From an uncultured bacterium (GTDB lineage: Bacteria; UBP4; UBA4092), in contig CAVYHJ010000002.1 in NCBI GenBank assembly GCA_963768165.1, forward strand, positions 128,676 through 192,675: a DNA stretch of 64,000 nucleotides. The letters are read 5' to 3'. How positions within the stretch are numbered: position 1 is the stretch's first letter; each line of letters begins with the position of its first letter. Of this stretch, positions 19,590 through 36,570 are shown in pieces. The notes beneath the pieces were generated by a model. The model ran no database searches and was not told the DNA's origin. It saw only the letters and a list, made by a program, of their open reading frames with translations. Position numbers and translations under genes: made by a program.

Positions 19590-22403
19590 ATGAGAGACTT
19601 TCTCTACATGGTAGAGAAAGCACAACAAGATAAAAGTAGTCCTCTTAAAATATCATTTTCCCTTCCGCTAATAATTATTCCCAATATTCAGTATATTAGC
19701 ATCCCCATTTCTTTCTCTTTTTATCTCTTATCATCAATCTCTTCAATTATGGGCTGGTGCAGAAAATTAATGATGATAATTTTTAGTTTGTTACTGGTAA
19801 CTCAAGCCAAGACAACTACTAGTGAACCAATCCCCCAACGCGCACCGTTAAATCCCGAATTTATAAAATACCAAGAAGATGTTGCCAAAGGGATTCTCCA
19901 TCCACAATATACGGCGGATGGGCATTATCTAGGTTATATTCCGTCTCCCGTAGATTTATTTTATCTTAAAGGACAAAAGATATTTCAAAATCTCGTTGTG
20001 CCAATGCTCTCATTTCCTTCAACTTACGATCTCCGTACTTATGGAAAAGTATCACCCGTGGAAGCTCAGGAATGTGGGGATTGTTGGATATATGCAACCT
20101 ACGGTTCCTTGGAATCCAACGAGTTAACTGCCGATAAGGCAATTTTCTCCGAAGAACACCTTGATGCTTTCAATGGATTTGATAACGGATGTTGCAATGG
20201 TGGAAATTTTTCGATAACCCAGGCTTATTTGGCGCGATGGAGTGGACCCGTATATGAATCGGATGACCCATACATAAGTTGTAATTCCCCATCAGACCTG
20301 TCATCCTTACCGGCTCGAAAACATGTCCAGGAAGTTGATTGGATTCCTCAAAGAAGTAATTCATTAGACAATGATAATATAAAACTAGCGCTTATGAATT
20401 ATGGAGCGGTGGCCTGTTGTTTTGGGTGGGATAATGCTTATTACAATTCAACGACCTATGCCTATTATTGCGATACGACTGCCGGTTTGGCCGGCCATTG
20501 TGTAACACTCGTGGGATGGGATGATAACTATTCAAGCACTAATTTTGTAACTCCTCCCCCGGGCAATGGTGCATTCCTTATTAAAAACAGTTGGAGTACC
20601 GGTTGGGGCGATAATGGATTCTTCCATATATCCTATTATGACGTAAATGTTGGAGGCTTTACCCTTTTTCGTATGGCGGAGAGTACTACTAATTTTAGTA
20701 ATATTTATCAATATGATCCCTTGGGCCAAACAGCCGGGTATGGTTATGGTTCCTTTACTGGATGGTTTGCTAATATTTTTACAGCGGTTGGTACTGAAAA
20801 GATAACGGCTGTAAGCTTCTATGTGGCTGAACCCAATTCGACTTATACTGTTGCCGTTTATCTGGATCCTACTTCCGGCCCTATCAATAATTCCGGTCCT
20901 GTACTCACAAACTCCAGTACGATTTCCAATCCGGGTTATCAAACAATTAATTTAAGCTCATCTGTATCAGTGAATTCTAGTCAAAGATTTTCTATTGTTG
21001 TTATGCTCAATACTCCCGGTTATTATTGGCCTATTCCTATAGAATCTCAAGACTCGGGTTATAGCAGCGGCGCTACAGCAACGACAGGACAAAGTTATAT
21101 CAGTTCGAATGGATCAAGTTGGACAGATATGACACTAGCTATGCCGAATGCCAACGTATGTTTAAAAGCTTTTTCGTCTTTTACCGAGATATTTATCAAC
21201 GGGTATCTCTTGGATAGTTCCGGCAATCCCCTCAATGGAAGTTATGCCTATGTGGCGGATTGGTATTCCGGGTTACAGATTATCAATATCAGCAATCCTG
21301 CGTCACCGATTTTAACAGGGTCCTATGATGCTACGCTATCCAGTGCCCATGGTGTCGCGGTCAGCGGGAACTATGCCTATGTGGCAGATTATTCTTCTGG
21401 GTTACAGATTATCAATATCAGCAATCCTGCGTCCCCGACTCTGACAGGGTCCTATGCTACGCCGGACTTAGCTTGGAATGTCACAGTGAGTGGAAACTAT
21501 GCCTATGTGGCGGAGGGAGCGGATGATATTTTTTCTGGGTTACAGATTATCAATATCACCAATCCTGCGTCCCCGACTCTAGCAGGGTCCTATGCTACGC
21601 CAAGCTATGCCTATGGTGTCGCGGTGAGTGGGAACTATGCCTATGTAGCGGATTGGAATTCAGGGTTAGAGATTATTAATATCAGCAATCCTACGTCACC
21701 GACTCTAGCGGGGTCCTATGCTACACCGGGTGCCGTAGGTGTCACGGTAAGTGGTAACTCTGCCTATATGGCAGATTATAATTCCGGGTTACAGATTATT
21801 AATATTAGCAATCCTTCTTCTCCGACTCTAGCAGGGCACTATGCTACACCGAGCGATGCCGAAAGTGTTGCGGTGAGTTCAACCTACGCCTATGTGGCGG
21901 AGGATTCCGGGTTACAGATTATTAATATCAGCAATCCTGCTTCCCCGACTCTGGCAGGGTTCTATACTACGTCGGGTATCTGGGGTTGGGGTGTCGCGGT
22001 GAGTGGGAACAATGCCTATGTCGCCGCTGGAAATTTAGAGATTATTAATATCAGCACTGCTTCTTTACCCACTCTGGTCGGTTCCTATGCTACGGGCTAT
22101 GCCGAAAGTGTTGCGGTGAGTGTAGTCACCGCGAGAATCACCATGAGTTTGAGTGGAACTACCTCAGGATCAACCAATGCCGATTCCAATGGATATTACC
22201 AGTTTACCAATTTATCTCTTGGAGGGAATTATACCGTGACTCCCGGCGAAACTCATTATACGTTCAGTCCACCATACCAGACTTACAATTCATTAACTTC
22301 CTACCAGTCTAATCAGAACTTTACAGGAACTATTAGTTTGCCCGCAATCAAAGATTGGATGTTATATTCGACAGAATCTGACTATATGCGTCATAGGTTT
22401 TAG
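19590..22403 (+). CDS. Secreted papain-family (C1A) cysteine peptidase with 8 LVIVD repeats and a C-terminal Cna-B/carboxypeptidase-regulatory-like domain.
   Basis: Catalytic motifs QECGDCWIYA (Cys), HCVTLVGWDD (His) and NSWSTGWGDNGFF (Asn). There are eight repeats of about 40 aa (YAYVAD..SGLQIINISNPASPTL.GSYAT). The signal peptide starts at the internal Met 19749, so the true start may be 19749 rather than 19590, although 19590 has the AAAGGGGA RBS. The C-terminal tail reads KDWMLYSTESDYMRHRF. Confidence 0.8.
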   Translation: MRDFLYMVEKAQQDKSSPLKISFSLPLIIIPNIQYISIPISFSFYLLSSISSIMGWCRKLMMIIFSLLLVTQAKTTTSEPIPQRAPLNPEFIKYQEDVAKGILHPQYTADGHYLGYIPSPVDLFYLKGQKIFQNLVVPMLSFPSTYDLRTYGKVSPVEAQECGDCWIYATYGSLESNELTADKAIFSEEHLDAFNGFDNGCCNGGNFSITQAYLARWSGPVYESDDPYISCNSPSDLSSLPARKHVQEVDWIPQRSNSLDNDNIKLALMNYGAVACCFGWDNAYYNSTTYAYYCDTTAGLAGHCVTLVGWDDNYSSTNFVTPPPGNGAFLIKNSWSTGWGDNGFFHISYYDVNVGGFTLFRMAESTTNFSNIYQYDPLGQTAGYGYGSFTGWFANIFTAVGTEKITAVSFYVAEPNSTYTVAVYLDPTSGPINNSGPVLTNSSTISNPGYQTINLSSSVSVNSSQRFSIVVMLNTPGYYWPIPIESQDSGYSSGATATTGQSYISSNGSSWTDMTLAMPNANVCLKAFSSFTEIFINGYLLDSSGNPLNGSYAYVADWYSGLQIINISNPASPILTGSYDATLSSAHGVAVSGNYAYVADYSSGLQIINISNPASPTLTGSYATPDLAWNVTVSGNYAYVAEGADDIFSGLQIINITNPASPTLAGSYATPSYAYGVAVSGNYAYVADWNSGLEIINISNPTSPTLAGSYATPGAVGVTVSGNSAYMADYNSGLQIINISNPSSPTLAGHYATPSDAESVAVSSTYAYVAEDSGLQIINISNPASPTLAGFYTTSGIWGWGVAVSGNNAYVAAGNLEIINISTASLPTLVGSYATGYAESVAVSVVTARITMSLSGTTSGSTNADSNGYYQFTNLSLGGNYTVTPGETHYTFSPPYQTYNSLTSYQSNQNFTGTISLPAIKDWMLYSTESDYMRHRF
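21243..22125 (+). repeat. Intragenic tandem DNA repeats of about 120 bp that encode the LVIVD repeats.
   Basis: GGGTTACAGATTATCAATATCAGCAATCCTGCGTC(A/C)CCGACTCT recurs at high identity about 8 times. Confidence 0.8.
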
Positions 22404-22601
22404 TCCCTTGGAAATTTAATAACCTTTGGCCTTACCTGATACGATTGGATCATGAATGGGGAAAGTACCTACGGAGTAATAAAATGGTTTCCAAACGCAC
22501 CCTTGTCTTATTATCAATTTATTTTCTGATATAGAATTCTTTAAGTTGAATTTTTTACTATTCTATGACATATTTCTATTCAACTGAAAGGTGTTTTATT
22601 A

Positions 22602-23408
22602 ATGAAGAAATGTCCATATTGCTTTAGCGAAATAGATGAAAGAGCTATTCTTTGCCCAAATTGCCGAAAGAAGGTAGGTGCTATGGGAAAAGACGGAATA
22701 GCAACAAAACCTAAGGGATGTTGGATAGCATTACTTGTTATAGCAATTGTTTTAATTGTTTTCACCGCTTTTGTAGTATTAATTATCTTGTTTAACAGAG
22801 TAGTATCTTCTAGTAGTTCTACAACTACTTCCATATCAAAACCTTCAAAAGAACTGACTCCAGAGCAAAAAGCAATTGCAAGTAAATTCCAAATTACTGG
22901 TCGTTACAATACTTTTGGTCGTAGTGGTGATGACGAATTAGCATTATTAATGCCGAAGAACAGTTCAAAAGAAGATTTGAAATCATTGATCCTTACCTTA
23001 AGACAAGTCCGGCAGGATAATAATTTCATTAAATTTGGAATCCCACCTACAACTCCAGAAGGTCATTTCGATGAAAGTGCACCTATGTTTCGTAATTTCC
23101 ATAAATTATATGGTAATTATGCACTAATTGTAATCTATGTATTTACTGATCCTGAATGGGCAACTAGTGATAATTTGAGAAAATTTGATTCACCTACTGA
23201 TTCAGAATTTGAAGATAAACTTTACCACCGAAATTTTATCCCAGAATTTTCTCAACATGTGAAAGCATTTTATTGGTGGCAGGCATACCCGTATGAATGT
23301 GAAATAGGTACTTTGGGTTTCAAGAGCAATATATCAGAATTCAATGCCGATAAAGACCAGGGAGCCAATTACGAGGCACTTTTTAATTACAGAGAGAAAG
23401 GTAAATAA
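22602..23408 (+). CDS. Hypothetical membrane-anchored protein with an N-terminal zinc ribbon (CPYC...CPNC), one TM helix, a Ser/Thr linker and a C-terminal domain of about 180 aa with no recognised family.
   Basis: ORF with a GAAAGGTG RBS. It lies in an AT-rich (about 33% GC) block. Confidence 0.5.
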   Translation: MKKCPYCFSEIDERAILCPNCRKKVGAMGKDGIATKPKGCWIALLVIAIVLIVFTAFVVLIILFNRVVSSSSSTTTSISKPSKELTPEQKAIASKFQITGRYNTFGRSGDDELALLMPKNSSKEDLKSLILTLRQVRQDNNFIKFGIPPTTPEGHFDESAPMFRNFHKLYGNYALIVIYVFTDPEWATSDNLRKFDSPTDSEFEDKLYHRNFIPEFSQHVKAFYWWQAYPYECEIGTLGFKSNISEFNADKDQGANYEALFNYREKGK

Positions 23409-23549
23409 CTTTTTTGAAGAATATATTTCGATCTGAGAGCTCAAATATAGCTCAAGATGGATTATTTATGGTTATAAAACAAATGAAGTATCAATGGAAA
23501 AGTGGGAGAAAAAGTGGTTTTGCCATCGTTGCGGAGAGGTGTTTGATTT

Positions 23550-24293
23550 ATGATTGATCAACATGAAATATTTACAAAGTTTCTAAAAGATCATCTTAAT
23601 TCCTCCATTTTTTTAGACGAAATTTTGCCTAAGAAAGAAGAGAAGGCTGATTTCCTCTTATACAATAAACAAATAATTTCTGAACTTAAGGAATTACAAA
23701 AGGATCATACTAGCAAAATTATTAGTTTTTCAAAAAGATATTCAAGTGAAAATAATATTACTCCACGGCAAATACAATTAAATCCCATAGAGTATCGAAA
23801 ATTTTTAAAGTTAGCCAATGAACGATTAACGCGGAAATTAACGCATACATTATTTCATGATATTAATAAGGCGAACACGCAGATACAAAGTACAAGGGAG
23901 TATTTGAAAAATGATCCACGATACTCAAATATTTATAATATACCGGGAATGGTTATTATTATAAATAGTTCTGACAATGCTCTTTTGGCAAAAATAGCAT
24001 TACAAGCATTAATCAGAAAACTTGGTTTTTCGTCATCTAGGAAGAAATTAATTTGTAGTAATATCAAGGTATGTTTTTATATATCATTATGCTTTGAACC
24101 CATTACTCTTGATGGGAACCAAATGCCGTCAGTTGTTATAATTAATAGAGTATTTAATAATGAACACCAATTAAGCAGATCCAATTTAGATTTTATTAAA
24201 CACTTAAGGGCTTTGTGGATTATGAAATTTGTTAAGTCAAAGAGTTTTAGAACACCTCCAAGTACAAATATTGATGGGTGTGCTATACAATAA
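23550..24293 (+). CDS. Hypothetical protein (247 aa) with no recognised family, in the same AT-rich block.
   Basis: ORF only. The low GC suggests horizontal acquisition. Confidence 0.4.
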   Translation: MIDQHEIFTKFLKDHLNSSIFLDEILPKKEEKADFLLYNKQIISELKELQKDHTSKIISFSKRYSSENNITPRQIQLNPIEYRKFLKLANERLTRKLTHTLFHDINKANTQIQSTREYLKNDPRYSNIYNIPGMVIIINSSDNALLAKIALQALIRKLGFSSSRKKLICSNIKVCFYISLCFEPITLDGNQMPSVVIINRVFNNEHQLSRSNLDFIKHLRALWIMKFVKSKSFRTPPSTNIDGCAIQ

Positions 24294-24406
24294 AATAAAA
24301 AATATGTCCCGATATGAGAATCGGGAATAGATGTGGAAGAGGTTCCCGACGTCACAAAATAATTCTTCTACAAATGCAGAATTACTCCCCTTGGCTGAAA
24401 TCCGCC

Positions 24407-24430
24407 AGCTTTCTGCGACCGTAGAAAGTT
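24407..24430. promoter_or_regulatory. Imperfect operator-like palindrome AGCTTTCTGCGACCGTAGAAAGTT, a member of the AAACTTTCY-N8-RGAAAGTTT motif family.
   Basis: Inverted arms CTTTCT/AGAAAG with an 8-bp spacer. It lies 83 bp upstream of the perfect site. Confidence 0.4.
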
Positions 24431-24456
24431 TATAATACTAATCAACTCAGTCTTAG

Positions 24457-24640
24457 AGAAAACCTTTGACATTTGAGATCACTGAAAAAGTGACTTTCTC
24501 TATCTTTTTAAAAAACTTTCTGCAATTGCAGAAAGTTTATCTCCAATGAAATCAAGTGTTTAGAATAATTGTACGTTCGCACAATTATTATTTTCCACAT
24601 AAATTGGACTTTTTCAGAGGTCTCATTTGTCAAAGGTTTT
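24457..24640. repeat. Structured element of about 185 bp bounded by 32-bp imperfect terminal inverted repeats (AAAACCTTTGACATTTGAGATCACTGAAAAAG ... CTTTTTCAGAGGTCTCATTTGTCAAAGGTTTT). The perfect 26-bp palindrome lies inside it.
   Basis: The arms match at about 28/32 positions as reverse complements. MITE-like or long-hairpin architecture. Confidence 0.5.
24513..24538. promoter_or_regulatory. Perfect 26-bp palindrome AAACTTTCTGCAATTGCAGAAAGTTT, a candidate dimeric-regulator operator upstream of the GH-like gene triplet.
   Basis: Exact reverse-complement symmetry. A same-length related site AAACTTTCCACGGTAGCGGAAAGTTT occurs at 42012-42037 upstream of a prepilin gene. Confidence 0.5.
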
Positions 24641-24728
24641 TAGAATGATCTAGTCGAAGAAAATTATCCTCATCTCCACCGACGATTCTTTTCAAATCCC
24701 CTGCCATCCATGCTATACTTTTATAGTC

Positions 24729-25787
24729 ATGATGAGCTGTGCCCAACGACGAGTTATAATTCCTTCCTGTTTTCTCATCGTCCTATTTTTATCCGTCTCC
24801 GGTCATAGCGATTCTTTCACTCCTGTCTGGCAAAAAGGCATGTCTTATGTCCCCTGGAGTTGGAGTATCCTATCCACCACGGATTCAAATTCTTCCATCC
24901 AGATAATGTCTTCTGATTCAATCCAATGGGTCGCCCTGTGCGATTTTTGGTTTCAAGCCAATGGGTCATCCACAACCATCGGTCCGGATGAGTCACGATA
25001 TAGTGCCAGCACCGAATCGATTAAATATGCCATCGATCAAATTCATGCCAATGGAATGAAAGTCATGTTAAAACCTATGGTAGATTTGGATAATGGAGTT
25101 TGGCGCGCGTATATCACACCTTCCAATGATTGGTTTTCCAGTTACTCCGCCTATATCCAGTTTTGGTCAGACCTGGCCACTGAGAAAAATGTGGATATGC
25201 TTTGTATCGGATGTGAATTTAAAGATACCCAATCTTGGGATTCCAGTTGGCGCATGATCGCCGCCACCGCTCGCGCTCATTATTCCGGACCCATTACTTA
25301 TGCTGCCAATCATGACGATTTTAACTATGTCACGTGGTGGGATGCGGTAGATTATATTGGGATTGATGCTTATTTTGCTTTAACCAATACGGATACACCC
25401 ACCCTCGAACAACTCTCCTCCGCATGGGATAACACAGCAAATTTCATTGAATCTTTCCGGAATTCCAACTTTCCTACAGAACAGGTAGTGTTTACAGAAA
25501 TCGGGTATCAAAGCGAGGATGGAACCAATGAAACCCCTTGGAATACGACCGGGGGTGCCGTTGATACCGCCGAACAACAACAGTGTTATGAAGCGTGTTT
25601 TGAAGTCATGACTCAGCGAAATTGGTTTGATGGTATGTATTGGTGGAACTGGGAAACCAGCCCTACTGCCGGTGGACCAAATGATAACGGGTTTACTCCC
25701 CAAAACAAACCTGCGGAAGCTACAGTAAAATTGTGGTATTCCAAAACCATCCCTTTGGTTCCTGTTGATGATTGGTATAAGTATTAG
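24729..25787 (+). CDS. Secreted putative glycoside hydrolase, clan GH-A-like TIM barrel (paralog 1 of 3).
   Basis: Signal peptide. Candidate acid/base Glu in the motif CIGCEF and nucleophile Glu in VFTEIGY. The WRMIAATARAHY motif is conserved across all three tandem paralogs. Assignment to a GH family is an inference. Confidence 0.5.
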   Translation: MMSCAQRRVIIPSCFLIVLFLSVSGHSDSFTPVWQKGMSYVPWSWSILSTTDSNSSIQIMSSDSIQWVALCDFWFQANGSSTTIGPDESRYSASTESIKYAIDQIHANGMKVMLKPMVDLDNGVWRAYITPSNDWFSSYSAYIQFWSDLATEKNVDMLCIGCEFKDTQSWDSSWRMIAATARAHYSGPITYAANHDDFNYVTWWDAVDYIGIDAYFALTNTDTPTLEQLSSAWDNTANFIESFRNSNFPTEQVVFTEIGYQSEDGTNETPWNTTGGAVDTAEQQQCYEACFEVMTQRNWFDGMYWWNWETSPTAGGPNDNGFTPQNKPAEATVKLWYSKTIPLVPVDDWYKY

Positions 25788-28093: not shown

Positions 28094-28942
28094 ATGCTCA
28101 ATTCAGCCACTATCATTATTCCGGCGTATAATGAGGAACAATCTATCGGGCCGGTCATTGATGAGATTCAACAGGTATTAAAAAATGAAAACCTTTCCAT
28201 TCCCATCCTGGTTGTGGATGACGGGTCTACGGATAAAACCTCAGACATTGCCAAATCCAAACAGGTTCAAGTCTTTCGCCATGAAGAAAATCGTGGGTAT
28301 GGCGCTGCATTAAAAACCGGAATCCATCGCGCGACGACCGAATTCATTATCATTATGGATGCCGATAAAACCTATCCCGCGTCCGTGATTCCTCAAATGT
28401 TACAATACACCGAAATGTATGACATGGTCGTAGGGAATCGGAATACCAAGCCGTCCATGCGGGTTTTTGCCAAATGGTTCTTGGTTAAGTTGGCGAATTT
28501 CCTTGCCGAGACCAAAATCCCGGATTTGAATTCAGGATTTCGTCTAATCCGTAAATCTGCTTTGGAACGGTTTTGGTTTATCCTGCCCAATGGGTTTTCC
28601 TTCACGACCACCATTACCCTCGCTATGCTTTGCAACGGGTATGCGGTAAAATATATTCCAATAGAGTATCGCGAGCGTTCGGGCGTATCTAAAATCAGAC
28701 CGGTTCGAAATACGTGGCAGTTTTTGATTCTCATTATTCGGACAATTGTCTATTTTAACCCGTTGAGAGTCTTTCTACCGGTCGGGTTTATTATGATATT
28801 CGGCGGTATATTTATCGGCTTTTATACACATTTTGCTCAGGGCGGAGTTTATAAAGTAACCACAACTACCATGGTTATTGGCGGAGTTCAAATCCTGATG
28901 TTAGGCTTTTTAGCCGATCTCATCGCTAAAAAGTCGAAATGA
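28094..28942 (+). CDS. GT2 polyprenol-phosphate glycosyltransferase (GtrB/ArnC-like) with C-terminal TM helices.
   Basis: IIIPAYNEE...VVDDGSTDKT...DADKTY motifs, and two C-terminal TM segments as in GtrB-type enzymes. Confidence 0.75.
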   Translation: MLNSATIIIPAYNEEQSIGPVIDEIQQVLKNENLSIPILVVDDGSTDKTSDIAKSKQVQVFRHEENRGYGAALKTGIHRATTEFIIIMDADKTYPASVIPQMLQYTEMYDMVVGNRNTKPSMRVFAKWFLVKLANFLAETKIPDLNSGFRLIRKSALERFWFILPNGFSFTTTITLAMLCNGYAVKYIPIEYRERSGVSKIRPVRNTWQFLILIIRTIVYFNPLRVFLPVGFIMIFGGIFIGFYTHFAQGGVYKVTTTTMVIGGVQILMLGFLADLIAKKSK

Positions 28943-29062: not shown

Positions 29063-30475
29063 ATGAGAGTTCTTATACTCAATCCCCCGATGCTCAACGG
29101 GGTAATATATATGAAAGAACTGGGACGGTGCGGACGAAAATCCGTAGCGGGTGAGGTGTGGCCGCAAACCGGTTTGGGATATATCGCCGCCGTACTCCGC
29201 AAAGGCGGACATGAGGTCATGTTCATGGATTCCATGGCGATGGGATTTGATGTCGGCCAGTCCATTTACAAGATAGCCGCGTTCAAGCCTGAAATTGCTA
29301 TTTTGCATACCACGACCCCGACTTACAATAATGATGCGAAAGTGTTGGATTTGATTCAGAAACGAACGGGCGCATGTTGCGGATTTGTGGGAACTCATCC
29401 AACCGCGTTACCGGAAGAATCACTCAAGCAATCGTCCGCAGATTTTGTGATTGTCAGTGAAGTAGAAACGACTTTGCTCGATTTGTGTGACAACTTTAAA
29501 GGAGACTGGTCGAAAATCTTGGGACTCGCTTACCGCAAAGACGGAAAAATCTTACGCAATGGGGAGCGCCCTTTATTTCCCAACCTTGATGAATTTCCCT
29601 TTCCCGCACGCGACCTCATGCCCGTGGATAAATATAAAATGCCGTTCTTTGGCGACGAACCATTTATCACGGTAATCCCTTCGCGTGGCTGCCCGTTCCA
29701 ATGCACTTTTTGCCGTGCCGGAATGGTATGGGGTGAGAACGCGCGACACCGTTCCCCCGATAATATCTGTGATGAGATTGAAGAAGTCATTGCCAAATAT
29801 GGCATTCGCAACGTGGTCATGATGAGTGACACGTTGACTTTGAAAATGGATTGGATTGGAGCATTGGCGCAACGAATTATTGACAGAAAGATTAAGATTA
29901 AATGGATTGGCAATTCGCGCGTGGATACGGTTTCGCTGGAGTTGCTGAAAACCATGGGAAAAAGCGGTTGCCAGTTATTGTCCTTCGGGATGGAATCTGG
30001 TAATCAACAAATTTTGGACTCCTCCAAGAAACATATCAATCTCAAGCAGACCGTGCAGGGAATTCAATGGGCGAAACAAGCGGGCATTTTGACCTTTGGA
30101 TATTTTATCGTAGGTTTGCCTGGAGAAACTTGGGATACCATTAAGGAATCCATTGCGTTTGCCAAAGAGGCCGACCCGGATTACGTGAATTTTCATGTGG
30201 CAACACCCTTCCCCGGAACTGAATTGTATGAGATTGCCAAACGCAATAACTGGCTAATTACGGACGACTGGTCGCAGTATGAAGAAGAAGGGTCGGCGGT
30301 TATGCGCACCGAACACCTTTCTCCCGAAGAACTGGTCAAGGCACAGAAAATGGCGATGCGGGCATTTTATTTCCGTCCCGGCAAAGTCATGCAGGAATTG
30401 AAACGCGCTTTCTCCTCTCCCCGGATGTTCAAATCGAAAGTCAAAGCCGCAATACACGTGATGGCAGAGATTTGA
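29063..30475 (+). CDS. B12-binding domain radical SAM protein (class B radical SAM).
   Basis: An N-terminal cobalamin-binding Rossmann-like region and the radical SAM CxxxCxxC motif GCPFQCTFC. The C-terminal tail ...MFKSKVKAAIHVMAEI is duplicated as stubs downstream. Confidence 0.85.
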   Translation: MRVLILNPPMLNGVIYMKELGRCGRKSVAGEVWPQTGLGYIAAVLRKGGHEVMFMDSMAMGFDVGQSIYKIAAFKPEIAILHTTTPTYNNDAKVLDLIQKRTGACCGFVGTHPTALPEESLKQSSADFVIVSEVETTLLDLCDNFKGDWSKILGLAYRKDGKILRNGERPLFPNLDEFPFPARDLMPVDKYKMPFFGDEPFITVIPSRGCPFQCTFCRAGMVWGENARHRSPDNICDEIEEVIAKYGIRNVVMMSDTLTLKMDWIGALAQRIIDRKIKIKWIGNSRVDTVSLELLKTMGKSGCQLLSFGMESGNQQILDSSKKHINLKQTVQGIQWAKQAGILTFGYFIVGLPGETWDTIKESIAFAKEADPDYVNFHVATPFPGTELYEIAKRNNWLITDDWSQYEEEGSAVMRTEHLSPEELVKAQKMAMRAFYFRPGKVMQELKRAFSSPRMFKSKVKAAIHVMAEI

Positions 30476-30512: not shown

Positions 30513-30515
30513 AAT

Positions 30516-33500
30516 TTGCATTTAAATTTCCGAGGAGCGTGTTTCATATTTAGCAAAAGTTATCTTATCCTAGCAACAGTTCTTTTGTTCTCAACAGTTA
30601 GTTTGGTTTATGCGGGAAGTCCGTTGGACGGCATACAATGTAAACCGCCGGTACATATTGTCCATCGCCCTGTGGGTATTCAACCATTCACCGGTCCTGA
30701 TACAACAGCTCTATCCCCGTCCCAAGTCCGCGCGGCGTATAGCCTGCCTTCCACGGGGGGAAGAGGTACCATTGCGATTATTGATGCCTATGCTGATCCC
30801 AGTATTCAAAATGATTTCAATACATTTAGTTTGCAATATGGGTTACCTACCGCAACAGCCGCCAATTTTGAAATCCATGCGATGAGTACCACCATTGAAA
30901 ATGCTACTACATATGGTTGGAATGGGGAAGAATGCCTGGATACCCAATGGGCTCATGCCATCGCGCCCAATGCCAAAATATTGTTCGTGGAATGCATCAA
31001 TAATGGCACCGATTTATTGGCCGGGGTAATCTATGCCGCAAGCAGGTCGGATGTCGTGGCCATTTCCATGAGTTGGGGTCAGCCGGAATTTTCTGGTGAA
31101 AATATATATGATAGTTATTTTGTTAGTAATTATACTGCCACTTTCTTTGCCGGAACAGGAGACAGTGGAGCAGGCACCATTTGGCCGTCAGTTTCCCCCA
31201 ATGTAACCGCCGTCGGAGGGACGAATCTGTTTTTTAATTCCCTGGGTCAAGTTACCGCGGAAATAGCTTGGAGCGGTAGCGGTGGCGGGTTAAGCCAGTA
31301 TGAACCAGAATCAAGTTATCAAACCGGTTATGGTGTTCCCTCGACGAATGGATTCCGAGCAGTCCCGGATGTCTCTTATAATGGGGGCGGGGATTCTTAT
31401 GTTTCGGTCTATGACAGTTATCAAGAGGGTTGGATCGGCGTCTACGGAACCAGTGCCGGTGGCCCGCAATGGGCGGCTATCCGAGCTTTGGGCGGGAGTA
31501 ATATAAACAATACTTACCTTTATTCGCAAGCATCGTCCCCAGCTACATACGCCGCCGATTTCCGCGATATTACCAGCGGAAGTAACGGAACATGCGGATT
31601 TTATTGCAACGCTACCATTGGATACGACTATGTAACAGGACTAGGCAGTCCGCTGGGTAATGGATTGTTATCCATTGCAACTTCTCCAGTAGCAGGATTT
31701 TATGGTACTCCCACGATTGGGAACGCACCGCTGACAGTTGATTTTACAGATACCTCCGCCAATTATCCTAATTCGTGGAACTGGAGTTTTGGGGATGGGA
31801 GCACTTCCATTTCACAAAATCCATCGCATCTATATATGACAACGACTGAGGCTTTCTATACGGTTCAACTTATTGTGACCAATTCAGTAGGTACCAGCAC
31901 CTCCGCCCGGATAAATTATATTCATGCTTTGCCGCCACTGCCTCCGAGTGCGGGTTTCTATGCCAATCCTACGAATGGAGCAAGTCCGCTGGTTGTGAAT
32001 TTCATGGATACGTCTGCCAACAATCCGACAAATTGGACATGGACTTTTAGTGACGGGAGTACCGATTATTCACAAAATCCCATTCATACCTTTTACGCAT
32101 CCAATTCAACGGTTTATTATAGTGTTGGACTCGCAGTCAGCAGTCCGTATGGGTCAAGCTCCATTGTGCAATCAAATTATATAACGGTAGTGCCTGCGCC
32201 GACGATTGTTGTTCTGCCTACTTTCTTCAATAAGACGGTACAGCAGGGAACGATTACGTATGATTATCTGACCATTCAAAACACGGCAACGAACGGGACA
32301 ACTCTCAACTGGTCTATTTCTGAAAGTGTGACGAGTACTTTTAATAGAGTCGCGCAAAGTGGGAAAGAAAATTCCGTTGTTATTCAACTTCCGCAAAATA
32401 GCAAAGACTCGAATCCCAACCAATATACCGGTCCTCTTATACCGAGTGCCAATCCCGCCGCTTCAGACGGCGGATGGCAATATCAAACGGGATTGAATAA
32501 TGCTCGAAGCCGTGCCGCTGCTGGAACAGTGAATGGAAAAATTTATATTATTGGTGGATGGAGTTATCTCGGATCTACTATAACAAATAGTGTGGAAATG
32601 TTTGATCCCAACACCAAGCTTTGGACAACTAAAGCCAATAAACCCACAGCTGTTGCCAATATCGGATGCGGTGTGATTGGCAATAAAATATATGTTCCCG
32701 CAGGATTTGATTCCACTTTCAACCATTCAAATGTATTGGAGATTTACGATACTCAATTTGATTCATGGACAACCGGTTCACCGGTTCCTGTCGCAGTTTC
32801 CGGCGCGGCGGTTGCGGTTGTGAACAATAAATTATATGTGATGGGTGGCAACACGGAATCCGGTGAAACTAATTCGGTATATGAATATGACCCAGTGGGA
32901 GATAGCTGGTCGCAAATATCTTCCATGAACTATGCCTGCGGATATCTTGGCGCGGCAGTGGTAAACAATGAGATTTATGCGGTGGGCGGTTGGGATAACA
33001 ATAACCTAAATATGGCTTATTGTGAACAATATAATCCAACGAATGGTACTTGGACAATCGAAACACCCATGAACCTTGCGAGGGGAGATTTGGGGGTATG
33101 CTCTGATGGTTACTATATTTATGCCATTGGTGGAGGTGGTATTTGGACGAATTTCACCAGCGTTGTTGAACGATTTGATCCAAATATAGACACCTGGGTG
33201 ATGTCTACTGGTGTCGTACCTTTCTTAAACGTAGCTCGAAATGCGTTGAGTGTAGCTGTGAATAATGGAACGATTTATGCGATTGCTGGCTGGAACGGGA
33301 GTGCTTTAACAACCAATGAAGTATTAAGCGTAGATGTTCTCAATTGGCTGGATGAAAATCCCAATTTCGGTTCCACCAACAACGAAGGTGGATTTAGCCT
33401 TGTGACCGTAACATTTGATGCTACAAACTTACCCGAAGGAAGTACCACAGGTTGGATAGGAATTATTAATAACGACCCGAACAATAACCCTGTGATTATC

Positions 33501-33617
33501 CCTGTGAATCTAACCGTTACCCTGCCTGGAGTTAACGATTGGATGCAATATGCGAGAGATTTGCAAAATACCACTATACAGGTTCGTGTGCCGGAAGAAA
33601 TACGGAAGAACGAGTAG
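30516..33617 (+). CDS. Secreted S53 (sedolisin)/S8-like serine peptidase with two PKD domains, a six-blade Kelch beta-propeller and a conserved C-terminal tail.
   Basis: Sedolisin-like motifs: EE.LD..WAHAIAP.AKI (Glu/Asp) and GTSAGGPQWAAI (Ser). Two PKD repeats (PLTVDFTDTS..WNWSFGDGS). Six Kelch repeats (GKIYIIGGW, NKLYVMGG and similar). The C-terminus reads DWMQYARDLQNTTIQVRVPEEIRKNE. The start codon is uncertain: the track start 30516 is TTG, and the position homologous to the paralog-3 start is ATA 30546, downstream of a GAGGAG RBS. Confidence 0.75.
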   Translation: MHLNFRGACFIFSKSYLILATVLLFSTVSLVYAGSPLDGIQCKPPVHIVHRPVGIQPFTGPDTTALSPSQVRAAYSLPSTGGRGTIAIIDAYADPSIQNDFNTFSLQYGLPTATAANFEIHAMSTTIENATTYGWNGEECLDTQWAHAIAPNAKILFVECINNGTDLLAGVIYAASRSDVVAISMSWGQPEFSGENIYDSYFVSNYTATFFAGTGDSGAGTIWPSVSPNVTAVGGTNLFFNSLGQVTAEIAWSGSGGGLSQYEPESSYQTGYGVPSTNGFRAVPDVSYNGGGDSYVSVYDSYQEGWIGVYGTSAGGPQWAAIRALGGSNINNTYLYSQASSPATYAADFRDITSGSNGTCGFYCNATIGYDYVTGLGSPLGNGLLSIATSPVAGFYGTPTIGNAPLTVDFTDTSANYPNSWNWSFGDGSTSISQNPSHLYMTTTEAFYTVQLIVTNSVGTSTSARINYIHALPPLPPSAGFYANPTNGASPLVVNFMDTSANNPTNWTWTFSDGSTDYSQNPIHTFYASNSTVYYSVGLAVSSPYGSSSIVQSNYITVVPAPTIVVLPTFFNKTVQQGTITYDYLTIQNTATNGTTLNWSISESVTSTFNRVAQSGKENSVVIQLPQNSKDSNPNQYTGPLIPSANPAASDGGWQYQTGLNNARSRAAAGTVNGKIYIIGGWSYLGSTITNSVEMFDPNTKLWTTKANKPTAVANIGCGVIGNKIYVPAGFDSTFNHSNVLEIYDTQFDSWTTGSPVPVAVSGAAVAVVNNKLYVMGGNTESGETNSVYEYDPVGDSWSQISSMNYACGYLGAAVVNNEIYAVGGWDNNNLNMAYCEQYNPTNGTWTIETPMNLARGDLGVCSDGYYIYAIGGGGIWTNFTSVVERFDPNIDTWVMSTGVVPFLNVARNALSVAVNNGTIYAIAGWNGSALTTNEVLSVDVLNWLDENPNFGSTNNEGGFSLVTVTFDATNLPEGSTTGWIGIINNDPNNNPVIIPVNLTVTLPGVNDWMQYARDLQNTTIQVRVPEEIRKNE

Positions 33618-33638
33618 TTAATTGTGTTTGCCGGTTCC

Positions 33639-33693
33639 CCCAAATGCTTAAATCCAAAATCAAAGCCGCGATACATGTCATGGCGGAGATATA
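33639..33693 (+). pseudogene. Stub of the 3' end of the B12-radical SAM gene (encodes MLKSKIKAAIHVMAEI*).
   Basis: About 80% nucleotide identity to 30421-30475. The differences are almost all synonymous. Confidence 0.7.
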
Positions 33694-33704
33694 GTATTTT
33701 TTTG

Positions 33705-33733
33705 TTGACTTGTCCTCAGAAACGACCTACAAT
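33705..33733 (+). promoter_or_regulatory. Sigma70-like promoter for peptidase paralog 2 (TTGACT, 17-bp spacer, TACAAT).
   Basis: Read from the sequence. Confidence 0.5.
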
Positions 33734-33785
33734 TTTATCTAACAAAAACGGATTATTGAAGGGTAAATTTTAAAGAGAGCGAGTT

Positions 33786-35027
33786 ATGCACCCTAGGAAA
33801 TCCATAATTTTAATTGTCTCCCTTTGCGCCATCATAACCATTGTCACACAGAGCGTAGTATCTGCCCAAAGTCCCTCGTCGGGACGTCCGATGTATCCTC
33901 CGATACATTGGGTTGATTTGGGACCGATTCAACCGTTAGCCGTTTCTCCGCCATTCAATCCCGCCACCATTCGTGCGGTGTATCAGTTACCGACGACCGG
34001 CGGGTCGGGAACCATAGCCATTATTGATGCCTATGATGATCCCAGTATCATGCACGATTATTATACTTTTTGTACGACCTTTGGACTGCCGACCGCAACA
34101 TCTTCTAATTTTGAATTGCACAAAATGAGTTCCAATATTACAACGGATAATACCGGCAGTTGGGAAGGTGAAGAAGCACTGGATGTCGAATGGGCGCACG
34201 CCATCGCCCCGGAAGCCAAAATCTTGTTTGTGGAATGCACCTCGAATGATAACAATGATTTATTGGCGGGAGTCACCTATGCCGCTAATAGGTCGGATGT
34301 GGTCGCAATATCCATGAGCTGGGGCGGCGAGGAAATCGCCAGCAATACCACATTGGATTCCTATTTTATCAGTCCTTATGGAGCGACTTTTTTCGCCTCC
34401 TCAGGGGATGATGGAACGGAAGTCCAATGGCCCGCGGTCTCGGTCAATGTGGTTGGTGTCGGCGGGACTCAGTTGAGTATAACGTCCACGACTACAGAAA
34501 TCGCATGGAGTGGGAGCGGCGGAGGGTTAAGTAAATATGAAAAGGAACCCTCTTATCAAACAAGTTATGGGGTTCATTCCACCCAAGGGTTCCGCGCAGT
34601 CCCTGATGTTTCATATAATGCTTCCCCTAATTCTTCTGTTTTAGCCTACAACACGTTTATGTATACAGGATGGGGCGGGGGTTCTGGAACTAGTGCCGGG
34701 TCTCCGCAATGGGCGGCGATTCGGGCATTGGGCGGAAGTAATATCAATCACACGTATCTTTATTCTCAGGCAACATCGCCGACAACCTATGCGAAAGATT
34801 TTCGGGATATTACCTCCGGCTATAATGGTCCAGGAGGGTTTTATGAAACAGCAACGACAGGATACGATTATATCACCGGATTGGGAAGTCCCTTGGGCGG
34901 AGGATTATTACCCTCGGTCGCCGTCGAGGATTGGATGTTTTATTCGGAGGATTTACAAAATACTCCTATGCCGATTCACCTGCCAAAAATCACTACCCAC
35001 CCTGAAGGAATAAAAAAGGATGAGTAA
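33786..35027 (+). CDS. Secreted S53/S8-like serine peptidase, paralog 2 (catalytic domain only), with a conserved C-terminal tail.
   Basis: Signal peptide and the same catalytic motifs (EEALDVEWAHAIAPEAKI, GTSAGSPQWAAI). The C-terminus reads VEDWMFYSEDLQNTPMPIHLPKITTHPEGIKKDE. Confidence 0.75.
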   Translation: MHPRKSIILIVSLCAIITIVTQSVVSAQSPSSGRPMYPPIHWVDLGPIQPLAVSPPFNPATIRAVYQLPTTGGSGTIAIIDAYDDPSIMHDYYTFCTTFGLPTATSSNFELHKMSSNITTDNTGSWEGEEALDVEWAHAIAPEAKILFVECTSNDNNDLLAGVTYAANRSDVVAISMSWGGEEIASNTTLDSYFISPYGATFFASSGDDGTEVQWPAVSVNVVGVGGTQLSITSTTTEIAWSGSGGGLSKYEKEPSYQTSYGVHSTQGFRAVPDVSYNASPNSSVLAYNTFMYTGWGGGSGTSAGSPQWAAIRALGGSNINHTYLYSQATSPTTYAKDFRDITSGYNGPGGFYETATTGYDYITGLGSPLGGGLLPSVAVEDWMFYSEDLQNTPMPIHLPKITTHPEGIKKDE

Positions 35028-35100
35028 GGTAATTGGAAAAAAAATCCAAAGCAATATGAAAAGGAATAAAGGGTAGCCATACTTAGGAAACATCTCATAC

Positions 35101-35252
35101 CCGAAGATTTGGTGAAAGGACAGAAAATAGCGATGCGGGCGTTTTATTTCCGTCCCGGCAAGGTAATGCAGGAACTCAAACGTGCGTTCTCCTCCCCTAA
35201 CATGTTTAAATCCAAAGTCAAAGCCGCCATACACGTGATGGCGGAAATCTAA
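35101..35252 (+). pseudogene. Stub of the 3' end of the B12-radical SAM gene (about 50 codons: ...EDLVKGQKIAMRAFYFRPGKVMQELKRAFSSPNMFKSKVKAAIHVMAEI*).
   Basis: About 85% nucleotide identity to 30325-30475. The amino-acid sequence is nearly identical, with mostly third-position changes. Confidence 0.75.
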
Positions 35253-35260
35253 TTTTTTTG

Positions 35261-35289
35261 TTGCCTAACCCAAGAAAACGTACTATACT
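35261..35289 (+). promoter_or_regulatory. Sigma70-like promoter for peptidase paralog 3 (TTGCCT, 17-bp spacer, TATACT).
   Basis: Read from the sequence. Confidence 0.45.
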
Positions 35290-35298
35290 TTTATAGAG

Positions 35299-36570
35299 TT
35301 GAGATATACGCATGTAAGGATATTTTACCCCAGGAGGGCGATTATTGTGTTTACCAGAAAGTCACTAATCCTACTTACCACGCTATTTCTATCCACGGTA
35401 AATTTGGTTTATGCAGGAAGTTTATTGGATGGCATACAATGTAAACCTCCGGTTCGTATTATAACGGGTATTCAACCTGATGTTGTGAACTATTTTGCAG
35501 CCCCGGCGGACATCCGTAATATCTATGGTCTGCCCTCCACAGGAGGGACGGGAACCATTGCGATTATTGATGCCTATGATGATCCCAGTATTCAAAATGA
35601 TTTCAATACCTTTAGTCTACAATACGGGTTGCCTACCGCTACGGCCACGAATTTTGAAATCCATAAAATGGGTACACCTATTGCGCTTGCGACTAATGGC
35701 AACTGGAATGTAGAAGAAGATCTGGACGTTGAATGGGCTCATGCTATCGCACCCAATGCCAAAATACTATTTATTGAAGCCACATCCGCTAACGGGAATG
35801 ATTTATTAGCGGGAGTTACGTATGCCGCCAGTAGGTCGGATGTAGTGGCTGTTTCCATGAGTTGGGGTTCTCCAGAATTTGCTGGTGAAAACACTTACGA
35901 TACCAGTTTTATCAGTCCCTATGGCGCCAATTTCTTTGTCTCCTCAGGAGACGACGGTACTGAAGTTCAATGGCCGGCAGTTTCCGTCAATGTCACCGCC
36001 GTTGGAGGGACTTCAGTGACTCTTACTGGTGGAGGTTCCTTTGTTTCGGAAACCGCCTGGAGTGGAAGTGGCGGTGGGTTAAGCCAGTATGAAACGGAAC
36101 CAAGTTATCAAACCACTTACGGGATTCCTTCATCTCTTGGATTTCGTGGGGTTCCAGATGTCTCGTATAATGCAGATGGTAATAACACCGCTTTTATTGT
36201 TTTTATTAGTTTAGGATATACACCAGGGTATTATGGAGTCGGCGGAACCAGTGCCGGTACGCCGCAATGGGCAGCTATCCGAGCTTTGGGCGGAAGTAAG
36301 ATAAACAATACCTATCTTTATTCGCAAGCATCGTCTCTATCCACCTACACCACTGATTTCCGCGATATCACCACAGGAACCAATAGTGGGACTCACGGAT
36401 TTTATACCAAGGCCACTGTTGGATATGATTATGTTACAGGATTAGGCAGTCCTTTGGGCAAGGGATTATTACCCTCGGTCGCCGTCGAGGATTGGATGTT
36501 TTATTCCACGGAATCACACAATACTCCCCTATGGTTTGGTCAACCCAAAGAAATTCGGAAAAGCGAATAA
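35299..36570 (+). CDS. Secreted S53/S8-like serine peptidase, paralog 3 (catalytic domain only), with a conserved C-terminal tail.
   Basis: Same catalytic motifs. The likely true start is GTG at 35347, preceded by a CAGGAGGG RBS, giving the signal peptide (M)FTRKSLILLTTLFLSTVNLVYA. The C-terminus reads VEDWMFYSTESHNTPLWFGQPKEIRKSE. Confidence 0.75.
   Translation: MRYTHVRIFYPRRAIIVFTRKSLILLTTLFLSTVNLVYAGSLLDGIQCKPPVRIITGIQPDVVNYFAAPADIRNIYGLPSTGGTGTIAIIDAYDDPSIQNDFNTFSLQYGLPTATATNFEIHKMGTPIALATNGNWNVEEDLDVEWAHAIAPNAKILFIEATSANGNDLLAGVTYAASRSDVVAVSMSWGSPEFAGENTYDTSFISPYGANFFVSSGDDGTEVQWPAVSVNVTAVGGTSVTLTGGGSFVSETAWSGSGGGLSQYETEPSYQTTYGIPSSLGFRGVPDVSYNADGNNTAFIVFISLGYTPGYYGVGGTSAGTPQWAAIRALGGSKINNTYLYSQASSLSTYTTDFRDITTGTNSGTHGFYTKATVGYDYVTGLGSPLGKGLLPSVAVEDWMFYSTESHNTPLWFGQPKEIRKSE

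Follow-up and report, generated by a model that had tools for sequence, protein, structure and literature searches.

Why should exported enzymes with unrelated catalytic domains, encoded by neighbouring genes, end in the same short sequence? A preliminary description of this DNA had reported a DWM·Y tail on a C1 cysteine peptidase and three S53 paralogues, and had interpreted it as a candidate sorting or anchoring signal. In the window, that is, the whole analysed stretch of 64,000 nucleotides, all four tails were found as reported and the family assignments hold. The observation is confirmed and can be extended, since the GH113 glycosidase GH113_1 is a fifth carrier. A short C-terminal module on unrelated catalytic scaffolds was correctly recognized, and now covers five exported enzymes that belong to the unrelated families C1, S53, and GH113 and are encoded in a single gene cluster. 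We conclude that these proteins share a genuine C-terminal extension, the DWM·Y tail, which is homologous among them and predicted to be disordered.

Anatomy of the tail

The tail occupies the C-terminal 12–44 residues and is built from two blocks, namely LP·(V/I)·DWM·Y(S/A)·(E/D)(S/L) and a basic end. The pattern DW[MY].Y is present within the last 45 residues in 5 of the 46 window proteins, and outside that region in none of the 46, to be compared with a mean of 0.008 carriers and a maximum of one in 2,000 shuffles. Scanning all six frames with DW[MLFYIV].[YF] returned the four known open reading frame ends, the end of GH113_1, and one trivial two-codon match. When a profile made from the S53 tails alone was scored on the 43 non-S53 window proteins, the C1 peptidase ranked first (18.5 bits, E 2e-6), which removes the concern that its match is coincidental, and GH113_1 came next (6.3 bits, E 0.014), aligned over its last 12 residues. 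An exhaustive search with a profile, blind to tails consisting of block 1 only, covered 1.84 billion representatives and found full tails solely in the S53 cluster and the C1 protein.

The N-termini of all five carriers are signal-peptide-like, and at least seven further window proteins with such N-termini lack the tail. The carriers are close neighbours on the same strand, all inside one 17 kb locus. As the preliminary description held, the tail contains no transmembrane segment: the maximum Kyte-Doolittle value (window 15) over the last 50 residues does not exceed 1.55 in any of the five carriers, compared with 2.0–2.7 for real transmembrane ends in the window. AlphaFold predicts the tail of S53_2 to be disordered (residues 377–413, pLDDT 30–39). 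Depending on the carrier, 5 to 32 residues separate the motif from the C-terminus, and recognition therefore cannot need the free carboxyl end. Two or three basic residues lie near the tail ends (IRKNE, IKKDE, IRKSE, MRKTSKAKTKD, and MRHRF), and Ser/Thr residues follow the motif in the segments YSTES, YSTD, NTT, and NTP.

The carrier enzymes

The exported C1 cysteine peptidase (19590–22403, plus strand) comprises a Peptidase_C1 domain (Pfam match, 83 bits), a Lectin_like domain, seven LVIVD repeats, a CarboxypepD_reg-like domain, and the tail. The protein is identical to database protein P0121, its true start is likely the ATG at 19749, just 5' of the signal peptide MGWCRKLMMIIFSLLLVTQA, and a choice-of-anchor B model matches it weakly, below cutoff. 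It ends …SLPAIKDWMLYSTESDYMRHRF, where the tail (22338–22403, plus strand) consists of block 1, LPAIKDWMLYSTES, and block 2, DYMRHRF, and resembles an S53 tail from which about 10 residues between the blocks have been removed. Similarity between this protein and S53_1 is limited to a 16-residue tail core, and the preceding domains are dissimilar.

GH113_1 (24729–25787, plus strand; Pfam GH113, 194 bits) is the first in a tandem of three GH113 paralogues and the only one with a tail; the second and third paralogues terminate in …LPLTNIK and …LPLTQNTLKTKNSK. Its C-terminus, …IPLVPVDDWYKY, contains a truncated tail of about 12 residues (25752–25787, plus strand), PLVPVDDWYKY, which aligns to PLPAVEDWMQY of the S53 protein P0003 and stops directly after the block-1 tyrosine, leaving no Ser/Thr past the motif. 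GH113_1 is the weakest member of the set.

The three S53 proteins have no match in Pfam and were matched to sedolisin structures (E 2e-12). Glu129, Asp133, Asp208, and Ser303 are invariant among 59 S53 homologues, and we take them to correspond to the sedolisin catalytic residues. S53_1 (30516–33617, plus strand) has a sedolisin-like catalytic domain, two PKD domains, a Kelch propeller, a further β-rich region, and a tail (33522–33617, plus strand) in which block 1, LPGVNDWMQYARDLQNT, a linker, and block 2, PEEIRKNE, give the C-terminus …TLPGVNDWMQYARDLQNTTIQVRVPEEIRKNE. S53_2 (33786–35027, plus strand) has only a signal peptide, a sedolisin-like catalytic domain, and a tail, and lacks an N-terminal prodomain; its tail (34905–35027, plus strand) runs LLPSVAVEDWMFYSEDLQNT…PEGIKKDE, the protein ending …VAVEDWMFYSEDLQNTPMPIHLPKITTHPEGIKKDE. 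In the AlphaFold model (pTM 0.78), this tail is not docked on the enzyme. The GTG at 35347 is the start of S53_3 (35347–36570, plus strand), in agreement with database protein P0002, whereas the mechanical open reading frame begins at 35299; the protein ends …VAVEDWMFYSTESHNTPLWFGQPKEIRKSE, with the tail at 36466–36570 (plus strand), LLPSVAVEDWMFYSTESHNT…PKEIRKSE. In block 1, 13 of the 14 codons at conserved residues are identical between S53_2 and S53_3, compared with a background of 50%, which indicates a gene-conversion tract.

Origin and conservation

Canonical S53 homologues end in GLGSP·T··F/Y, right after the catalytic domain, and tails occur solely among the closest relatives, in about 10 of the nearest 120. 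These fall into three flavours: A, VEDWM·Y; B, VENW····FD·D; and C, VPVELS·FE·DSDL, where type C keeps the canonical …LTTNF end and adds 18 residues. Within each type, tail identity equals or exceeds that of the catalytic domain in three samples. S53_1 is the positional orthologue of P0003 (locus L003), and identity between the two is 59% in the tail (19 of 32 residues), 63% in PKD, and 76% in the catalytic domain, at an ordinary synonymous divergence of the tail (11/17, background 61%). Each tail flavour is roughly as conserved as the catalytic domain, which implies selection, and the sequence comparisons show it to be purifying.

P0003 is a single-copy gene product that already has the tail, with the same radical-SAM (rSAM) gene upstream and no rSAM fossil downstream, and the tail is therefore older than the local tandem duplication and not a by-product of it. 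We conclude that its native setting is one lineage-restricted branch of an S53 peptidase family that lacks the prodomain. Even where domains have been inserted between LG·GLL and VEDW, the tail remains at the extreme C-terminus, and what precedes it differs among proteins: the catalytic domain, one PKD domain, a PKD and Kelch region of about 650 residues, LVIVD repeats, or GH113. S53 paralogues with flavours B and C probably share one genome with flavour A, and such coexistence is a poor fit to a single signal-receptor pair.

Possible functions of the tail

The sorting-signal interpretation is partly supported. In its favour, the tail has six of the eight attributes (1, 2, 3, 6, 7, and 8) in a published checklist for small C-terminal sorting signals, purifying selection is indicated, and homologues are tailless or have other anchors; against it, the defining transmembrane helix is absent. 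Further points against it are that the known carriers are all confined to a single 17 kb locus, that tail flavours probably coexist in one genome, and that the profile search located full tails in no proteins other than the S53 cluster and the C1 peptidase. The dedicated processing enzyme proposed in the preliminary description also failed to appear, as no sortase, exosortase, rhombosortase/rhomboid, CPBP-type, or other such enzyme is encoded in the window.

The explanation that we tentatively prefer is a portable docking or retention tag that a soluble partner reads once the protein has been exported by Sec. The tail would have arisen as a 3' extension of an S53 gene, as suggested by the canonical …LTTNF end retained ahead of the 18 residues in type C, and may then have spread to neighbouring genes through local recombination, a conversion tract being seen between S53_2 and S53_3. 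After Sec export it would act as a short linear docking or retention motif whose binding partner is soluble or on the surface, as opposed to a sortase embedded in the membrane, so that a set of hydrolases would be gathered at a common place, e.g., the cell surface or a scaffold. The window organism is diderm; its signal peptides are of the Sec type, and its pseudopilins are of the T2SS/T4P type.

By proximity alone, candidate peptide-binding neighbours are a secreted PDZ protein (15850–16821, minus strand), the TPR protein at 15035–15811 (minus strand), and the TPR part of 11858–15028.

A role as C-terminal pro-peptide or cleavage site is unlikely. The tail would then be removed after export, its aromatic-acidic core being cut by the neighbouring sedolisin-type peptidases, and the same sequence would place the C1 peptidase and GH113_1 under a common maturation step. 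Secreted proteases often bear C-terminal propeptides, and sedolisins favour hydrophobic or aromatic P1 residues. All carriers are hydrolases, four of the five are peptidases, they share the locus with the S53 genes, and a disordered tail, as predicted, would be accessible to proteases; paralogue-specific flavours that are each conserved alongside their own catalytic domain also agree with this reading. However, canonical members of the family fold without a prodomain or a tail and are presumably active, the undocked tail in the AlphaFold model speaks against a pro-peptide function, the S53_1 tail lies about 650 residues from its catalytic domain, and that of GH113_1 is very short and ends at the motif.

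The tail might instead serve as recognition signal or acceptor site of a periplasmic system for protein O-glycosylation whose genes surround those of the carriers; the system would comprise polyprenyl-phosphate-hexose synthase-like GT2 enzymes and GT-C transferases, one of the latter TPR-fused. We regard this as improbable. Pmt-type enzymes add sugars to disordered, Ser/Thr-rich stretches in the course of Sec export, and in GT-C enzymes, TPR domains take on the binding of protein substrates. The locus encodes a TMEM260-like O-mannosyltransferase with TPR repeats (11858–15028), a GT2 (16906–17622) that adjoins a PMT_2-like GT-C (17626–19116) directly upstream of the C1 gene, a second GT2 resembling AglJ/dolichyl-P-hexose transferase (28094–28942), and the three GH113 genes, and the predicted disorder and the Ser/Thr residues past the motif are consistent with an acceptor. 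The glycosyltransferase assignments are, however, all under curated cutoffs and would fit a polysaccharide or lipid pathway just as well, GH113_1 lacks the Ser/Thr residues, and arrays with B and C tails in loci L001 and L004 have no adjacent glycosyltransferase genes.

A functionless S53 3' extension, copied to neighbours by illegitimate recombination and gene conversion, would account for the S53_2/S53_3 conversion tract, the proximity of the carriers on one strand, the predicted disorder, and the very narrow known distribution, and would suit the tandem-duplication history evident from rSAM 3'-end fossils repeated downstream of S53_1 and S53_2. We nevertheless give it little credence. Tails are conserved within each type like the catalytic domain or better, S53_1 and P0003 retain their tail identities at ordinary synonymous divergence, Asp, Trp, and Tyr of DW[MY].Y are invariant over three unrelated host families, and in-frame retention at two unrelated gene ends would be improbable without selection.

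A divergent LPXTG, PEP-CTERM, GlyGly-CTERM, or MYXO-CTERM-like signal, cut by a membrane sorting enzyme, is very hard to sustain: a signature motif at the tail start, basic residues near the end, otherwise unrelated carriers with signal peptides, and window EPS genes weakly similar to XrtA-associated families would fit, but the missing transmembrane helix contradicts it, the tail being without any hydrophobic segment, no NCBIfam or Pfam sorting-signal model matches it, and the window lacks a cognate enzyme. Finally, an in-frame fusion of the translated rSAM 3' end (…TDDWSQYEEE…LSPEEL…) by tandem duplication, suggested by the repeated fossils and the DDWSQY of the rSAM protein, is refuted, because in S53_2 the fossil begins past the stop codon, with NPKQY as a separate equivalent of DDWSQY, S53_3 and the single-copy orthologue in L003 are tailed but fossil-free, and DDWSQY scores just 1.3 bits (E 0.5) against the tail profile.

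Comparison with known systems

Like the LPXTG/sortase, PEP-CTERM/exosortase, GlyGly-CTERM/rhombosortase, PGF-CTERM/archaeosortase, and MYXO-CTERM/myxosortase systems, the tail is C-terminal and has several carriers in one genome. As in these small tripartite signals, the carriers are unrelated apart from their N-terminal signal peptides, their homologues elsewhere are shorter or bear different anchors, and a few basic residues lie near the end. Unlike them, it has no transmembrane helix between motif and basic end, and the membrane-tethered cleavage mechanism of the established small sorting signals therefore cannot apply; moreover, its five known carriers come from one locus with no cognate enzyme in the window. 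C-terminal propeptides of secreted proteases are similar as dispensable extensions that are missing from many homologues, but the tail is found also on a glycosidase and an unrelated protease class, and its cleavage is hypothetical.

The C-terminal domains of the T9SS (Por_Secre_tail and CHU_C) are modules without a transmembrane segment on Sec-exported hydrolases of diderm bacteria, and in other lineages T9SS-type domains occur on homologues of both the C1-lectin and the S53 core. They are folded β-sandwiches of about 70–100 residues, in contrast to the shorter tail with its predicted disorder, which matches neither model. Dockerin-cohesin and SLH systems rely on folded domains with a known partner, whereas the tail is a short linear motif. 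As proposed here for the tail, however, they use a portable C-terminal module to hold unrelated secreted enzymes at a common site, and the corresponding position in C1-lectin homologues from other lineages is indeed occupied by dockerin (Dockerin_1) or SLH domains.

A short C-terminal peptide on three families of exported hydrolases

The preliminary description proposed a sorting or anchoring signal from four C-termini, those of a C1 peptidase (19590..22403) and of three S53 peptidases, S53_1 (30516..33617), S53_2 (33786..35027) and S53_3 (35347..36570). The quoted ends match the sequence exactly, and a fifth carrier can be added to them. A six-frame scan of the window for DW[MLFYIV].[YF] returns only the four known ORF ends, one further ORF end and one trivial 2-codon match. 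The additional carrier is GH113_1 (24729..25787), the first of three tandem GH113 glycosidases, which ends …IPLVPVDDWYKY at the stop codon. The pattern DW[MY].Y is found within the last 45 residues of 5 of the 46 window proteins and at no other position in any of them, as against a shuffled-sequence expectation at protein ends of 0.008 on average and never above 1. Since the C1 tail was part of the first profile, the comparison was repeated with a profile built from four S53 tails alone. Among the 43 non-S53 proteins of the window, C1 ranks first (18.5 bits, E = 2e-6), so that its match is not coincidental, GH113_1 is second with its last 12 residues aligned (6.3 bits, E = 0.014), and the others are at noise level.

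What the carriers share is a short peptide rather than a domain: when the last 135 residues of C1 and of S53_1 are compared by BLASTP, only the 16 residues of the tail core align, T(I/V)(S/T)LP·(I/V)·DWM·Y··; a larger CTD-like domain common to the two proteins is thereby ruled out. The host proteins fall into the families peptidase C1, GH113 and peptidase S53 (sedolisin-like), and the idea of unrelated scaffolds with a common short C-terminal module thus holds for C1 and S53, and also for GH113. The C1 protein, a papain-family peptidase, matches Peptidase_C1 with 83 bits (cutoff 20.7) and Lectin_like with 165 bits, and in addition contains seven LVIVD repeats and a CarboxypepD_reg-like domain. 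GH113 scores 194 bits (cutoff 27). The three S53 proteins have no Pfam match and no pro-kumamolisin prodomain at the N-terminus, and were assigned from PDB sedolisin structures, which they match over residues 58–368 (E = 2e-12). Glu129, Asp133, Asp208 and Ser303, which we take to correspond to the catalytic residues of sedolisin, are invariant in 59 S53 homologues. The subfamily without a pro-kumamolisin-type prodomain, missed by Pfam, has homologues P0011–P0120, and its named matches include proteins of Patescibacteria, Methanoperedens and Bathyarchaeia. Taken together with the structural and evolutionary comparisons below, the tail is confirmed as a real, selected, portable and disordered C-terminal peptide common to three unrelated exported hydrolase families.

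Sequence and predicted structure of the tail

At the codon level, the tail (…TLPGVNDWMQYARDLQNT…) aligns as two blocks separated by a variable linker: block 1, LP·(V/I)·DWM·Y(S/A)·(E/D)(S/L), and a basic block 2, (E/Y)(I/M)R(K/H)··, that runs to the stop codon. Asp, Trp, Met and Tyr are invariant in the alignment and preceded by LP·(V/I), with Tyr replacing Met in GH113_1. The C1 tail resembles an S53 tail from which about ten residues between the blocks are missing, and GH113_1 ends directly after the block-1 tyrosine. The total length is 12–44 residues, and the motif lies 5–32 residues from the C-terminus across the five carriers. The last residue is Phe in C1, Tyr in GH113_1 and Glu in the three S53 proteins. 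The ends IRKNE, IKKDE, IRKSE, MRKTSKAKTKD and MRHRF hold two to five basic residues each, intermixed with acidic ones, and the GH113_1 end has one lysine only.

All five carriers have signal-peptide-like N-termini by a heuristic applied to the first 35 residues, with a basic n-region and an h-region maximum KD(12) of 2.3–3.1. The earlier statement that the tail lacks a TM segment is borne out by a maximum Kyte-Doolittle(15) value of 0.62–1.55 over the last 50 residues of the carriers, compared with 2.0–2.7 where proteins of the window do end in a TM segment. In an AlphaFold2 model of S53_2 based on a 59-sequence alignment, the catalytic domain is well modelled (pTM 0.78), and residues 377–413 have pLDDT 30–39, no secondary structure, and are not docked onto the enzyme.

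For a peptide of this kind we tentatively favour a role as a docking or retention tag, which would be read by a soluble partner following Sec export. We consider it unlikely that the tail is a propeptide or cleavage peptide serving the sedolisins of the locus; should the tail prove to be a mere family-specific propeptide, it would be of local interest only.

Genomic surroundings and candidate partners

By its gene content the organism appears to be diderm: it encodes prepilin-type proteins, an acyltransferase resembling LpxL, and polysaccharide export proteins resembling Wza and Wzc. Several of these are part of an exopolysaccharide export cluster at 195-9556 on the minus strand, which comprises the LpxL-like acyltransferase, a Wzx-type flippase, a Wzc-like chain-length/tyrosine-kinase protein, a DUF362 protein, a Wza-like exporter and an FHA-GAF-HD-GYP-like regulator. 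The cluster shows weak, sub-cutoff similarity to XrtA/PEP-CTERM-associated families, and the window contains no exosortase.

Two kinds of possible partner are encoded near the carriers, and proximity is the sole link of either kind to the tail. The first kind, which could serve a docking or retention tag, consists of a secreted PDZ protein and TPR proteins (15035..15811, minus strand, and the TPR part of the protein encoded at 11858..15028). The PDZ protein (15850-16821, minus strand) has 323 residues, of which residues 44–138 form a PDZ domain resembling that of C-terminal processing peptidases (PDB code 7rpq, E = 3e-13; TIGR00225 prc, 75 bits), and neither an S41 catalytic domain nor any other family match was found in the remaining 185 residues.

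The second kind is a set of glycosylation genes located among the carrier genes. Its members are a protein O-mannosyltransferase of TMEM260-like type with fused TPR repeats (11858..15028), a GT2 enzyme (16906..17622) paired with a PMT_2-like GT-C protein (17626..19116) directly upstream of C1, and a second GT2 that is AglJ/dolichyl-P-hexose-transferase-like, i.e., polyprenyl-phosphate-hexose-synthase-like (28094..28942). The three tandem GH113 genes lie between members of the set, and every NCBIfam match in it is under the curated cutoff. The notion that the tail is a glycosylation tag strikes us as very unlikely.

Two islands of low GC content, 22000-24400 (0.34) and 51900-54500 (0.32), stand out from the overall value of 0.43 and may be recently acquired DNA. 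The former encodes a membrane protein with a zinc ribbon as well as a 247-residue protein without family match, both located between C1 and the GH113 genes, and the latter a DUF4062-GAF protein and two proteins without family match. Directly downstream of the S53 array, at 36710-38473, is a gene for a 587-residue membrane-anchored protein with an extended region of proline-rich repeats (EPAPR, PYPVPE) and a HEAT-like segment, and its position is conserved on the Logan contig L002.

Origin and flavours of the tail

The S53 array is preceded by a B12-binding radical-SAM gene (29063..30475), the 3' end of which (30240-30475) recurs twice as a decaying, non-coding fossil: at about 33637..33694, downstream of S53_1, and at about 35028..35252, downstream of S53_2, where identity is 81% over 182 nt. 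Tandem duplication of a unit that joined the radical-SAM 3' end to an S53 gene thus gave rise to the array. As the radical-SAM protein contains the stretch DDWSQYEEE, we considered whether the tail could be a translated remnant of that gene, and a gene-fossil origin of this type is effectively excluded. The fossil behind S53_2 starts past the stop codon, still reads …AFYFRPGKVMQELKRAFSSPNMFKSKVKAAIHVMAEI up to a stop, and has its own counterpart of the DDWSQY stretch; S53_3 has a tail but no fossil; on the related contig L003, only one S53-PKD gene, the positional orthologue of S53_1 (product P0003), lies after the same radical-SAM gene, and it already ends …PLPAVEDWMQYSTDLGNTTMPIRLPEEMRK… and has no fossil; and the tail profile gives the radical-SAM stretch a score of 1.3 bits.

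Tails of this kind are present in only about 10 of the 120 closest S53 homologues. Of the rest, those ending at the catalytic domain stop five residues past GLGSP, and others have different C-terminal domains. Three flavours can be distinguished: A, VEDWM·Y…; B, G(V/I)(E/R)NW····FD(L/M)D…; and C, …LTTNF followed by ASAVPVELSIFEMDSDLP (VPVELS·FE·DSDL). Flavours A and B have LG·GLL…VE(D/N)W·····DL in common. Type C retains the canonical S53 end and adds 18 residues, which suggests, from the alignment, that the tail began as a 3' extension of an S53 gene. PKD and Kelch domains sit between LG·GLL and the tail in S53_1 and P0003, so the tail has been retained at the extreme C-terminus while domains were inserted upstream of it.

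Conservation and gene conversion

S53_1 and P0003 are identical at 19 of 32 tail positions (59%), compared with 63% in the PKD domain and 76% in the catalytic domain. At conserved tail residues, 11 of 17 codons are identical, the same as the 61% background, and recent copying is thus not the reason for the conservation. Tails were also compared within types across three independent datasets (JGI 3300077760, SRR28211892 and ERR11523654). For type C, identity is 78–87% in the tail and 67–86% in the catalytic domain, and the corresponding values for type B are 44–80% and 65–79%; we read this as tail identity equal to or above that of the catalytic domain. Such conservation is unexpected in a disordered peptide unless it is functional and, judged by these alignments, the tail is under selection, which makes a neutral extension highly improbable.

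A gene-conversion tract connects S53_2 (34904-34951) and S53_3 (36465-36512), covering LLPSVAVEDWMFYS. Among conserved residues, 13 of 14 block-1 codons are identical between the two genes, compared with 50% in the catalytic domain. Recombination of this type, as the tract shows, offers the tail a way to spread.

Occurrence beyond the window

The tail occurs five times within the 64-kb window. An exhaustive HMMER search of 1.84 billion cluster representatives, one sequence per 50%-identity cluster, gave five matches to the tail profile at E ≤ 0.001: the S53 representative P0003, the window C1 protein, and three proteins (P0241–P0243) that were discarded as tandem-repeat artefacts. True members score 40–80 bits in local hmmsearch runs, and a tail with block 1 only scores about 18 bits, far under detectability at that database size. 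At the DNA level, the tail alignment and the complete S53_2 protein were each run against 185,579 species genomes, with matches at chance level only and none of them confirmed; in a metagenome collection, the tail alignment gave 46 pattern matches, of which none was confirmed. Neither collection contains the source genome or its relatives. The type-B tail DNA pattern gave 35 scattered chance-level matches in the metagenome collection and also missed known S53 positives. For C1, no full-length orthologue was found (the best match is 50% identical over 54% of the length), and no tail type of any flavour occurs in 119 C1 homologues.

A second type of S53 array, with the order RlmN, RNase R and two to three S53 genes, is found on the contigs L001 (5482-9166, where ArgJ follows), L004 (3420-5787) and L040 (2-3065). 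Their tails are of the flavours B (GVENW····FD·D) and C (AVPVELSIFEMDSDLP). One S53 copy of L001 is split, and another ends in an apparently frameshifted tail (…GLGSPHRYGIILNGCRKLERTKI before the stop). Nucleotide composition of the B/C arrays correlates with that of the window at r = 0.80–0.95, where within-window controls give 0.75–0.91 and composition does not separate the same genome from a sister lineage. Both samples with type A also contain these arrays, and the divergence is similar. Because of this co-occurrence and the matching composition, flavours A, B and C probably coexist in one genome.

Comparison with known sorting signals

The attributes of small C-terminal sorting signals have been assembled in an eight-point checklist (Haft, bioRxiv 10.1101/2023.06.07.544157), and in these terms the sorting-signal claim of the preliminary description is partly supported, with one central exception. 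The tail is C-terminal, 5–32 residues from the stop (attribute 1), occurs in several copies, five in the window (attribute 2), begins with invariant residues, i.e., Asp, Trp, Met and Tyr (attribute 3), and is carried by proteins with N-terminal signal peptides (attribute 6) that are otherwise dissimilar, i.e., C1, S53 and GH113 (attribute 7). Homologues are shorter or otherwise anchored (attribute 8): Dockerin_1, SLH or CHU_C/Por_Secre_tail forms the C-terminus of C1-lectin homologues, and CHU_C is present in one S53 homologue. The end cluster of two to five basic residues (attribute 5) is ambiguous in the tail. What is absent is the strongly hydrophobic middle of TM length (attribute 4), which is mechanistically central. 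To our knowledge, the established prokaryotic small C-terminal sorting signals all depend on a TM helix to keep the substrate in the membrane, where a sortase-type enzyme acts on it. Because the tail has no such helix, a classical signal of the sortase type is effectively excluded. The 64-kb window encodes no sortase, exosortase, rhomboid or CPBP enzyme, and none of the carriers is hit by a sorting-domain model of NCBIfam or Pfam.

The T9SS CTD is a folded beta-sandwich of about 70–100 residues (Por_Secre_tail/CHU_C/TIGR04183), whereas the tail is too short at 12–44 residues, has pLDDT 30–39 and matches none of the Pfam or NCBIfam models. Type I substrates carry no Sec signal peptide and are exported in a single step; since the N-termini of the carriers are signal-peptide-like, the tail is not a signal of this type. 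The OMP beta-signal and PDZ-type ligands are extreme C-termini whose register is fixed and whose last residue is typically aromatic. The carriers end in Phe, Tyr or Glu and their register varies from 5 to 32 residues, so the tail is not read from the free C-terminus.

In its most far-reaching form, which we consider rather doubtful, the docking idea would make the tail the first small C-terminal sorting or docking signal without a TM helix in a diderm bacterium, a short linear motif recognized by a soluble periplasmic or surface receptor, with the conserved flavours A, B and C directing different secreted hydrolases to different partners; in a variant, the tail would be the acceptor tag of the local protein O-glycosylation machinery. 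The tail stems from a poorly sampled uncultured lineage and would serve as a sequence handle for the secreted hydrolases of that lineage. C-terminal tags on secreted proteins are a kind of signal already known, but a conserved tag that has the other attributes and no TM helix would mean a different handling of exported enzymes, by docking, retention, glycosylation or controlled maturation.
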